Shown: piece after piece, positions 73 to 411 of the stretch
Layout of the letters: every line of letters begins with the position of its first letter
Position numbering within the stretch: position 1 is the stretch's first letter
Origin: Escherichia coli
GTDB taxonomy: Bacteria; Pseudomonadota; Gammaproteobacteria; Enterobacterales; Enterobacteriaceae
Reading direction: 5' to 3' (one strand)
Length of the DNA stretch: 411 bases
Assembly: GCF_003334335.1 (NCBI RefSeq)
Contig: NZ_QOWQ01000194.1
Position numbers and translations under genes: made by a program
The notes under the pieces: model-generated
What the model saw: only the letters and a program-made list of their open reading frames with translations
Told to the model about the DNA's origin: nothing
Databases searched by the model: none

Positions 73-78
73 CTGATG
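61..78. repeat. Perfect 6-bp inverted repeat CATCAG / CTGATG with 6-bp spacer, overlapping the right arm of the 43-72 inverted repeat
   Basis: Seen in sequence: 61-66 catcag and 73-78 ctgatg are exact reverse complements; spacer 67-72 is cacaat. It shares bases 65-72 with the previous inverted repeat, so the two structures or sites are mutually exclusive. Confidence 0.55.
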
Positions 79-98
79 ACCATTGAATGACCATTGAA
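77..98. repeat. Perfect tandem direct repeat, 2 x 11 bp (tgaccattgaa tgaccattgaa)
   Basis: Seen in sequence: 77-87 and 88-98 are identical 11-mers in head-to-tail arrangement. An 11-bp period is about one helical turn, which places the two copies on the same DNA face; this is the arrangement used by direct-repeat-binding regulators such as OmpR/PhoB-family response regulators. No specific regulator is identified. Confidence 0.7.
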
Positions 99-133
99 GG
101 ACGCACTAAATTATTTTCAGCAATCCCTCAGCC

Positions 134-256
134 TACGAAAATTCTGCATCCCCTGAATGTTTAATTTACACTCTTTTTATGCAATTATTCTTTCGACTAT
201 AAAAACACCACTATCTCATGTATGACCTTGGGGAGCGTGCCGTCTCCCCGTTTTTT
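134..256 (+). ncRNA. Candidate small RNA, copy A (5' end not determined; 3' end at the intrinsic terminator)
   Basis: Inference: a non-coding region ending in a strong intrinsic terminator, with a duplicated paralogous unit downstream and a 13-nt block (134-146) perfectly conserved between copies. No convincing sigma70 -35/-10 pair was found; TATAAA at 198-203 and TAAATT at 107-112 are weak candidates, so the start coordinate is a placeholder. I could not match the sequence to any sRNA I can recall (Spot42, CyaR, McaS, OmrA/B, RyhB, RprA, MicF and others were compared from memory). Confidence 0.3.
230..256 (+). terminator. Rho-independent (intrinsic) terminator: 6-bp GC-rich stem, 8-nt loop, 6-T tract
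   Basis: Seen in sequence: GGGGAG 230-235 pairs with CTCCCC 244-249 (five G:C pairs and one A:T); loop cgtgccgt 236-243; g250 then tttttt 251-256. The - strand has no T-tract after the hairpin (it is followed by aaggtcat), so the terminator is oriented for + strand transcription. Confidence 0.6.
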
Positions 257-304
257 CGCTTACAGTTTCATGACGACTTTCAGTTTCAGGAATCAGCAGT
301 TACC

Positions 305-331
305 ATGCAATACGAAAATTCTGTATTGCAT
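305..331. repeat. Perfect 9-bp-arm palindrome ATGCAATAC-N9-GTATTGCAT, present in unit B only
   Basis: Seen in sequence: 305-313 atgcaatac and 323-331 gtattgcat are exact reverse complements; spacer 314-322 is gaaaattct. It overlaps the unit-B copy of the conserved 13-mer (311-323). The equivalent left arm in unit A (cagcctac, 129-136) does not pair with gcatcc. It could be a dimeric-regulator operator or a 5' stem-loop of RNA B. Confidence 0.6.
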
Positions 332-411
332 CCGCGCCCTCATCTCAATATCTTTGTCGCCGGATAAAAATAACTATCAACCACAAGTATCATGCTCTCG
401 GGGAGCACGCA
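311..411 (+). ncRNA. Candidate small RNA, copy B (paralog of copy A; 3' end lies beyond the window)
   Basis: Inference from the tandem duplication: the conserved 13-mer is at 311-323, the conserved A-rich block at 362-370, and the start of a terminator-like 5' stem arm GGGGAG is at 400-405 (ggggagcacgca, cut by the window end). The matching CTCCCC arm and T-tract would lie just past position 411. Confidence 0.25.

Follow-up and report, generated by a model that had tools for sequence, protein, structure and literature searches.

At moron insertion sites, prophages of enterohaemorrhagic Escherichia coli carry Hfq-bound small RNAs (sRNAs) of 51-60 nt that run convergently to phage genes (PMC4104026). 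Expression and Hfq binding have been shown for AgvB and AsxR (EcOnc01-03; Tree et al. 2014, PMC4104026), which are represented in Rfam by RF02702 and RF02703. STnc100/PasD (RF02076) is a prophage intergenic sRNA family, and STnc100 is reported to lie beside the tail-fibre chaperone gene of a prophage (Zhu, Shabalina and Storz 2026, bioRxiv 10.64898/2026.05.13.724894), and the Pas sRNAs have roughly a thousand or more database matches each. OmrA/OmrB and PrrF1/PrrF2 are head-to-tail paralogues with their own intrinsic terminators, mapped promoters and a clear conserved seed, and they are maintained in all strains. The stretch of E. coli DNA analysed here, 411 nt long and referred to as the window, comes from the tfa-eib intergenic region of Eib prophages and holds two head-to-tail copies, units A and B, of a ~170-nt non-coding repeat that ends in an intrinsic terminator. 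The A/B element is real and, by Rfam and the searchable literature, undescribed. Units A and B are read as candidate sibling sRNAs of an eib-cassette family, encoded by + strand non-coding transcription units ending at positions 256 and 426; this reading is favoured here but falls a little short of probable. Eib proteins are prophage-borne, immunoglobulin-binding trimeric autotransporter adhesins, and EibG gives rise to the chain-like adherence of Shiga toxin-producing E. coli negative for the locus of enterocyte effacement. A response of EibG to agitation of the culture has been reported (PMC4352079).

The locus resembles that of AgvB/AsxR in its position at a prophage moron boundary, in a strand that converges on late genes, in the presence of related copies, and in a Rho-independent terminator preceded by an unstructured 5' part. 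The RNAs of units A and B would be similarly short, ~58-65 nt, if weak -10-like blocks within the units are real. The site differs, being tfa-eib rather than downstream of PR'/Q; for A and B, neither an Rfam sequence or structure match to AgvB/AsxR nor GcvB-mimic complementarity was found. Like OmrA/OmrB and PrrF1/PrrF2, units A and B are tandem paralogues with their own terminators and with blocks in the same order. Unlike those pairs, they have no detected promoters, in a fraction of the population one copy has decayed or been deleted, and what all copies share upstream of the terminators comes down to the short AU-rich blocks ATAAAAA and ACTAT. The location is of the type occupied by STnc100/PasD, a prophage intergenic region beside a tail-fibre chaperone gene, but no Rfam match to that family was found in the window, in the reference locus or in 11 other tfa loci. 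In contrast to the Pas sRNAs, the A/B element is rare, being present in 27-32 of 5,426 complete E. coli genomes (~0.5%).

Units A and B are tandem homologues closed by intrinsic terminators

The reference locus, L001, is from strain 2015C-3121 and contains the window at 8001-8411, such that a window coordinate equals the L001 coordinate minus 8000. Feature coordinates are collected in Table 1. All homology claims for the units are based on pairwise alignments compared with shuffled sequences. Global alignment of A with B gave 117 identical positions in 196 columns (z = 7.5), and local alignment gave 111 in 180 (z = 10.8); none of 500 shuffles equalled the global or the local score. A repeat search recovered the same blocks in the same order with an A-to-B spacing of 169-177 nt. 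The exact blocks common to both units are, in order, TTTCAG, TACGAAAATTCTGTAT, ATAAAAA, ACTAT, GGGGAGC, CTCCCC and GTTTTTT. At ~60% identity, A and B are tandem homologues in the manner of sibling sRNA genes. A single-sequence nhmmer search gave no A-B link, and the segment at 427-553 has no homology to either unit.

The terminator of unit A, T1, folds at -12.5 kcal/mol, a stability reached by 0 of 200 shuffles. T1 was recovered by the terminator scan, which found two sites in the window compared with 0.3 ± 0.5 in shuffles. The GGGGAG at 400-405 is the start of the unit B terminator, T2, whose complete sequence, GGGGAGCACGCACTCCCCAGTTTTTT (L001 8400-8426), has an energy of -11.6 kcal/mol. Both T1 and T2 consist of a GC-rich hairpin with a U-tract directly 3', the architecture of a Rho-independent terminator. 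The T-tracts are on the + strand only, and T1 is without a T-run on the other strand. The scan of L001 7600-8700 gave five terminator-like sites, all on the + strand, where shuffles gave 0.9 ± 1.0. Since tfa, eib and every other gene annotated in the 8 kb to either side are on the - strand, T1 and T2 cannot serve a coding gene. Orphan strong terminators on one strand without a coding gene are a classical signature of sRNA genes.

These results agree with most of what the sequence-only reading of the window had proposed. Its head-to-tail homologous units with blocks in a constant order are confirmed by the alignments, its terminator at 230-256 by the scan and the folding energy, and its prediction that the GGGGAG at 400-405 opens a second terminator by the CTCCCC arm and T-tract found past position 411. 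It had placed the repeat at 100-411; the duplication is borne out, but the start lies nearer 87.

The unit family travels with eib cassettes

The window sits within an 807-nt gap (L001 7747-8553) with tfa on one flank and eib on the other. It matches 27 of the 5,426 complete E. coli genomes, on chromosomes only and at 1-5 places per genome, and has no match in the plasmid collection searched with it. Eight phage records also match: PhiR5_2 (97%), PhiR5_1 and the PhiR12 series (87%), and P-EibA, the ECOR-9 prophage (72% coverage). The units lie between tfa and eib in a prophage at every locus examined, which is the subset of genomic places inspected singly. Two alternatives raised at the outset are excluded by distribution and annotation. 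Units confined to the tfa-eib intergenic region of Eib prophages are not dispersed repeats of the REP/BIME or ERIC/IRU type, and they are not the 3' untranslated region of an upstream gene, as annotation places no + strand gene in the 8 kb to either side. The tfa-gap-eib order is seen both in podovirus-like prophages (N4-gp56 capsid) and in lambdoid prophages (J, lom, stf, tfa), which indicates that the segment is mobile as a cassette. A gapped unit pattern run against viral contigs returned the known Eib loci and unrelated terminators of environmental phages.

Relatives of the Eib locus were taken from IMG/VR and fall into four groups by unit content: the A+B form, a P-EibA-type single hybrid, a single diverged unit, and loci without a unit (L182-185 and L189/190). 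Some eib-like loci share with the window locus only ~150 nt by the eib start (BLAST). One unit homologous to A/B by pairwise alignment is present in L174/L175/L178-L180, whose eib product is 49-58% identical, and in L177. The L174/L180 unit aligns with B at z = 8.2-8.9 and with A at z = 5.7, and the L177 unit aligns with A at z = 4.6. The units of L174, L180 and L177 also sit in the tfa-eib interval and are oriented as A and B are, with the T-run directly against the tfa stop codon. Because these other eib-like cassettes have one diverged unit abutting the tfa stop, the family is, on alignment evidence, specific to eib cassettes and A/B is its duplicated form.

In strain 2015C-3121 there are two sister prophages (L001 and L330; the latter is NZ_CP027340.1 4974089-4984263) whose capsid, adaptor and downstream genes are identical. 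They differ in the tail-fibre, tfa, intergenic and eib segments, one having an A+B+C gap and the other a single unit. Since these sisters hold both forms, the single unit looks older and A/B looks duplicated, and since they differ precisely there, the tail-fibre/tfa/intergenic/eib segment is seen to be a recombination hot spot. The unit has remained with eib despite considerable divergence, which speaks for the sRNA reading.

A covariance model, R1, was built from the 3' 80 nt of the units, and the training types match it by construction. Over 240 kb around 74 tfa/eib loci R1 found nothing beyond the training types, with the best outside match at 20.5 bits (E ~1). R1 misses a diverged haplotype of unit A, hap2, which is described below.

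The units are non-coding

Open reading frames (ORFs) in the window are short. The ORF at 157-225 stops just upstream of T1 and has no counterpart in unit B, L174 or L177. Depending on the allele, the longest + strand ORF is 36, 57, 78, 109 or 138 codons. The + strand frame shifts with the copy number of an 11-bp duplication at the 5' edge of unit A and between two haplotypes of the unit, hap1 (the window allele, in which unit A is intact) and hap2 (PhiR5_1, L170 and L007). Unit A of hap2 retains an ORF, mostly in a different frame from hap1, and hap2 with one copy of the 11-mer has a 78-codon + strand ORF that starts at an upstream TTG and contains the hydrophobic stretch LYLMIVLFALFLC. No Shine-Dalgarno sequence was found upstream of the + strand ORF. 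Neither RefSeq nor the gene caller of the genome collection calls anything in the 807-nt gap, and two phage submissions call differing ORFs in it, on different strands. The coding hypothesis was rejected because the + strand frame and length vary among alleles.

An ORF that ends just before T1, together with the hydrophobic stretch of the 78-codon ORF in hap2, is what a small protein or a type I toxin-antitoxin pair would leave at this locus. Such a pair would combine a conserved short hydrophobic ORF with an antisense RNA, whereas the ORF here differs by allele and by unit. The changing frame and length, the missing Shine-Dalgarno sequence, the lack of a gene call in the gap and the lack of a counterpart in unit B, L174 or L177 make either product very improbable.

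The conserved core is kept as sequence rather than as a stem

The longest exact block common to A and B is a 16-nt core, and an exact run of this length has P ~0.02 given the overall A/B identity. The core is restricted to the units within 490 kb of related prophage DNA. As a pattern, a 16-mer is too short for the 298 Gb of genome contigs, and a scan of these contigs gave only chance matches in unrelated taxa among the matches listed. In L174/L180 and L177 the core has counterparts that match it only loosely. Core B lies in a 27-bp palindrome that folds as a hairpin in the predicted unit B structure. Unit A retains just the inner 15 nt of the palindrome and forms no stable hairpin there, which means that the core is conserved as sequence and not as a stem. 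The candidate -35 hexamer of unit B, TTGCAT, falls in the right arm of the palindrome. Upstream of their terminators A and B share just the short AU-rich blocks ATAAAAA and ACTAT/ATAACKAT. An 18-nt run, CACCACTATCTCATGTAT, is preserved between hap1 and hap2 of unit A, with a chance probability estimated by hand at P ~0.07.

Expression of eib in lysogens reportedly requires the unlinked ibrAB genes. A DNA-level control module could account for the properties of the core: the palindromic cores would be putative operators for a dimeric protein governing either eib or divergent + strand transcription, and the terminators would be incidental. The putative binder might be the factor behind IbrAB-dependent eib activation or a phage regulator. 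Conservation of the core as sequence, its status as the best-conserved A/B block, its restriction to the units and the overlap of the unit B palindrome with the candidate -35 hexamer are all in keeping with an operator. To our knowledge no protein is known to bind this palindromic core, which counts against an operator, as do the loose counterparts in L174/L180 and L177. In addition, 390 and 565 bp separate the cores from the eib start codon downstream of them, and a plasmid carrying eibG with only 168 bp of upstream DNA complements an eibG deletion (bioRxiv 10.64898/2025.12.25.695649). On this balance an operator module is distinctly unlikely.

Known families, promoters, folding and targets

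Several results, given here and in the next section, weigh against units A and B being sRNA genes. The best Rfam matches in the window scored 11-21 bits against gathering thresholds of 34-53 (E = 1.8-9.4) and were to eukaryotic snoRNAs or unrelated families. L001 7000-9200 gave no match at E ≤ 5, and 11 related tfa loci, including the L174 and L177 types, gave none at E ≤ 1. Membership of AgvB (RF02702), AsxR (RF02703), STnc100 (RF02076) and Sok (RF01794) was tested because all four have Rfam models, and the units belong to none of them. Literature searches yielded no paper on these sequences or on an sRNA at eib, and no record of expression from the units.

Promoters were sought with a built-in scan and an approximate sigma-70 weight matrix in L001, L170, L174, L177, L180 and L182. 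No sigma-70-type promoter on either strand rose above shuffle expectation, and no promoter position was conserved. The built-in scan placed no site inside unit A or unit B, and no convincing sigma-54, sigma-E or sigma-28 match was seen by eye. The highest-scoring promoter-like site on the + strand, at 83-112, is a product of the variable 11-bp duplication, and other alleles lack it. A weak -10-like block is nevertheless a candidate in each unit (Table 1). The TATCTT site of unit B is the top + strand site in allele L170, and an AAT(A)T(T)CTTT block precedes the terminator stem by 38-47 nt in each of A, B, L174/L180 and L177. With this block as the -10 element, the RNAs would measure ~58-68 nt.

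Fold energies of the whole units do not stand out (unit A, z = +0.3; unit B, z = -1.8), with no structure signal by fold energy beyond the terminator hairpins. Targets were tested by comparing RNA duplex energies with shuffles, a crude measure because duplexfold permits long internal loops. Complementarity was not above shuffles for the eib leader and translation-initiation region, for 15 neighbouring translation-initiation regions, or for GcvB as the partner of an AgvB-style mimic; all duplex energies were at or worse than the shuffle means. The ~60% identity of A and B could itself reflect neutral decay after duplication.

Unit A and the terminators vary among alleles

The 3' half of unit A in hap2 is ~25% different from hap1. 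T1 has lost its left arm and folds at -2.7 kcal/mol; the candidate -10 block of unit A is also altered. A G402T change in L170 and L245, two different backgrounds, weakens T2 to -6.0 kcal/mol. L170 has both the T1 and the T2 defects, and its fourth hairpin is stronger (-14.8 compared with -9.6 kcal/mol). P-EibA has a single A/B hybrid unit in which the 5' two-thirds of A and the 3' part of B are fused; T1 and the beginning of B have been deleted. Unit B from ~329 onwards is nearly invariant across all alleles, including the single-unit form of P-EibA. The 11-bp sequence ATGACCATTGA is present in two copies in the window and L001 and in one copy in PhiR5_2, PhiR5_1, P-EibA and L170; L248 has three copies of the 11-mer, with the variant ATGACTATTGA. 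Unit B is the better sRNA candidate, and unit A is a paralogue that is intact here and decayed elsewhere.

The structural part of the sequence-only reading survives this analysis: the units are tandem, they carry terminators, they hold no credible ORF (that at 157-225 has no unit B counterpart, and frame and length vary), and they belong to no recognised sRNA family, the Rfam search having returned only chance-level matches. The further step to sibling sRNAs drew no support from the promoter, fold and target tests and is weakened by the allelic losses.

Terminators at tfa ends and the alternative of a boundary function

Among the 33 sequence classes of DUF4376-tfa loci from IMG/VR (L250-L329), 25 have an opposite-strand terminator whose end lies 7-19 nt from the tfa stop, and just 8 have a same-strand terminator. 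The commonest tfa-end terminator is ATGGGGGAGGTGATGGTCCCCCATCTTTTT, and a 126-nt query containing it matches 118 of the 5,426 E. coli genomes (megablast). At L272-type loci tfa is the last prophage gene and a convergent host gene lies opposite. The tfa-abutting terminators of other prophages match neither Rfam nor R1 and were rejected as family members for lack of an R1 match. Their frequency among the tfa classes indicates that an inward-pointing boundary terminator is a general design, and this generic feature is a further point against firmly assigning the units an sRNA function.

It also makes plausible that A and B are stacked boundary terminators with no role in trans. They would insulate the tail block from antisense transcription arising at the prophage end, in morons or in the AT-rich eib control region, and the RNAs would be by-products. 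Recombination at the junction would have duplicated the old unit, producing A and B, and brought in a new tfa together with a terminator of its own, T3; the redundant copies would now decay. The homologous unit of L174/L180 and L177 holds exactly the tfa-abutting position, which in the window lineage is held by the unrelated T3 (L001 8529-8553). The terminators turn over as this history would predict, T1 being lost in hap2, T2 weakened, and the fourth hairpin strengthened where both are weak. The lack of a detected promoter and the convergent host gene at L272-type loci point in the same direction. Units A and B share with ordinary boundary terminators a GC-rich 6-8 bp stem followed by a T-run and, as at most tfa ends, an orientation opposite to tfa. 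They differ in being ~170-nt homologous units with conserved non-terminator blocks, in being eib-specific and in being displaced from the tfa stop. T3 alone would suffice at this boundary, yet unit B is near-invariant in every allele, including the deletion form. Insulation also leaves unexplained the 16-nt core and the ordered blocks that A and B share outside their terminators, and the unit accompanies eib rather than tfa in general, with none found by R1 at other tfa loci. A boundary function is a serious possibility, nearly equal in standing to the candidate-sRNA reading, and taken by itself is still somewhat doubtful.

In prophage eib adhesin cassettes the element is part of the upstream boundary, on the tfa side. 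Under the favoured sRNA reading, RNA polymerase on the + strand would leave the eib control region heading for the tail genes and be released at 256 and at 426, which would yield short non-coding RNAs. Initiation at the weak -10-like blocks (186-191 and 349-354) would give RNAs of ~58-65 nt, and a start near position 46 would give RNAs of ~210 nt or more. A more elaborate proposal has A and B, together with the single units of other eib-like cassettes, as a previously undescribed family of very short sRNAs that prophages carry along with the eib moron, that are switched by a core-binding protein (possibly in the IbrAB-dependent circuit behind eib activation) and that act in trans on mRNAs or sRNAs of host or phage; this is unlikely.

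An sRNA pair, or an operator-terminator module, on the eib cassette would offer a concrete handle on eib regulation. If A and B are sRNAs they constitute a new family, and the site downstream of tfa would be a second moron site for prophage regulatory RNAs. A core-switched family would connect host physiology with the expression of a factor for serum resistance and chain adhesion. Should the units be boundary terminators and nothing more, they still represent a common, little-noted design in which the tail-gene block is closed by an inward-pointing terminator, and they show how junction recombination leaves tandem relics.

Feature coordinates and the eib-proximal region

Table 1. Features of the tfa-eib intergenic region, in window coordinates unless L001 is given
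Feature	Position	Strand	Basis or remark
Unit A, first copy of ~170-nt repeat	87-256	+	Alignment with unit B
Unit B, second copy	257-411, runs to 426 past the window (L001 8257-8426)	+	Alignment with unit A
11-bp tandem duplication, ATGACCATTGA x2	76-97		5' edge of unit A; copy number varies
16-nt core of unit A, TACGAAAATTCTGYAT	134-149		Longest exact A/B block; position 144 is C in the window and T in L001
Candidate weak -10-like TATTCT, unit A	186-191	+	TTTACA at 165-170, 15-nt spacer; 5.3 bits, shuffle median best 9.3
Intrinsic terminator T1, GGGGAGCG-TGC-CGTCTCCCC then T6	229-256 (stem 229/230-250)	+	Terminator scan
27-bp near-perfect palindrome, ATGCAATAC-GAAAATTCT-GTATTGCAT	305-331		Around core B; read from sequence
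Core B	311-326		Within the 27-bp palindrome
Candidate weak -10-like TATCTT, unit B	349-354	+	TTGCAT at 326-331, 17-nt spacer; 7.5 bits, shuffle median best 9.3
Intrinsic terminator T2, left arm and loop	400-411	+	Right arm CTCCCC and T6 at 412-426
Fourth hairpin	L001 8440-8465	+	Compensatory changes and T-rich tail in L170
Terminator T3	L001 8529-8553	+	T-run touches tfa stop codon; unrelated to A/B
tfa, DUF4376 tail-fibre-assembly (chaperone) gene	L001 8554-9135	-	Annotation
'YadA C-terminal domain' gene	L001 6631-7746	-	P-EibA counterpart annotated as immunoglobulin-binding protein gene eibA

The ~150 nt beside eib (L001 7747-7900; window -254 to -100) is ~70% identical across all eib-like loci. 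It contains a hairpin with an 11-bp stem (GAAATTCCGAA...TTCGGAATTTC), which is a stem_loop in the AF151091 annotation, and a -10-like hexamer on the eib strand, TATAGT/TACAGT. This region is likely the eib promoter and leader. We infer that units A and B are upstream of and outside the eib transcript, and they would be cis-antisense to eib mRNA only if read-through from the late operon reaches eib.

At the same prophage end, 2015C-3121 has a Hok/Gef toxin gene (L001 1989-2129) and a second YadA-like adhesin gene (L001 445-1638), with a truncated lambdoid tail-tip-fibre gene upstream of both. This arrangement suggests that the ends of two phages have been combined in the L001 prophage end.

A 13-nt inverted repeat, ATCAAATTGTGCT / AGCACAATCTGAT, occupies 38-50 and 65-77 of the window, with arms 92% complementary and separated by 14 nt. 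It is invariant across all alleles and is situated between unit A and the best - strand promoter-like site (TTGACT at 34-29 and TAACTT at 12-7, 10.4 bits). The repeat could be an operator or an RNA hairpin.

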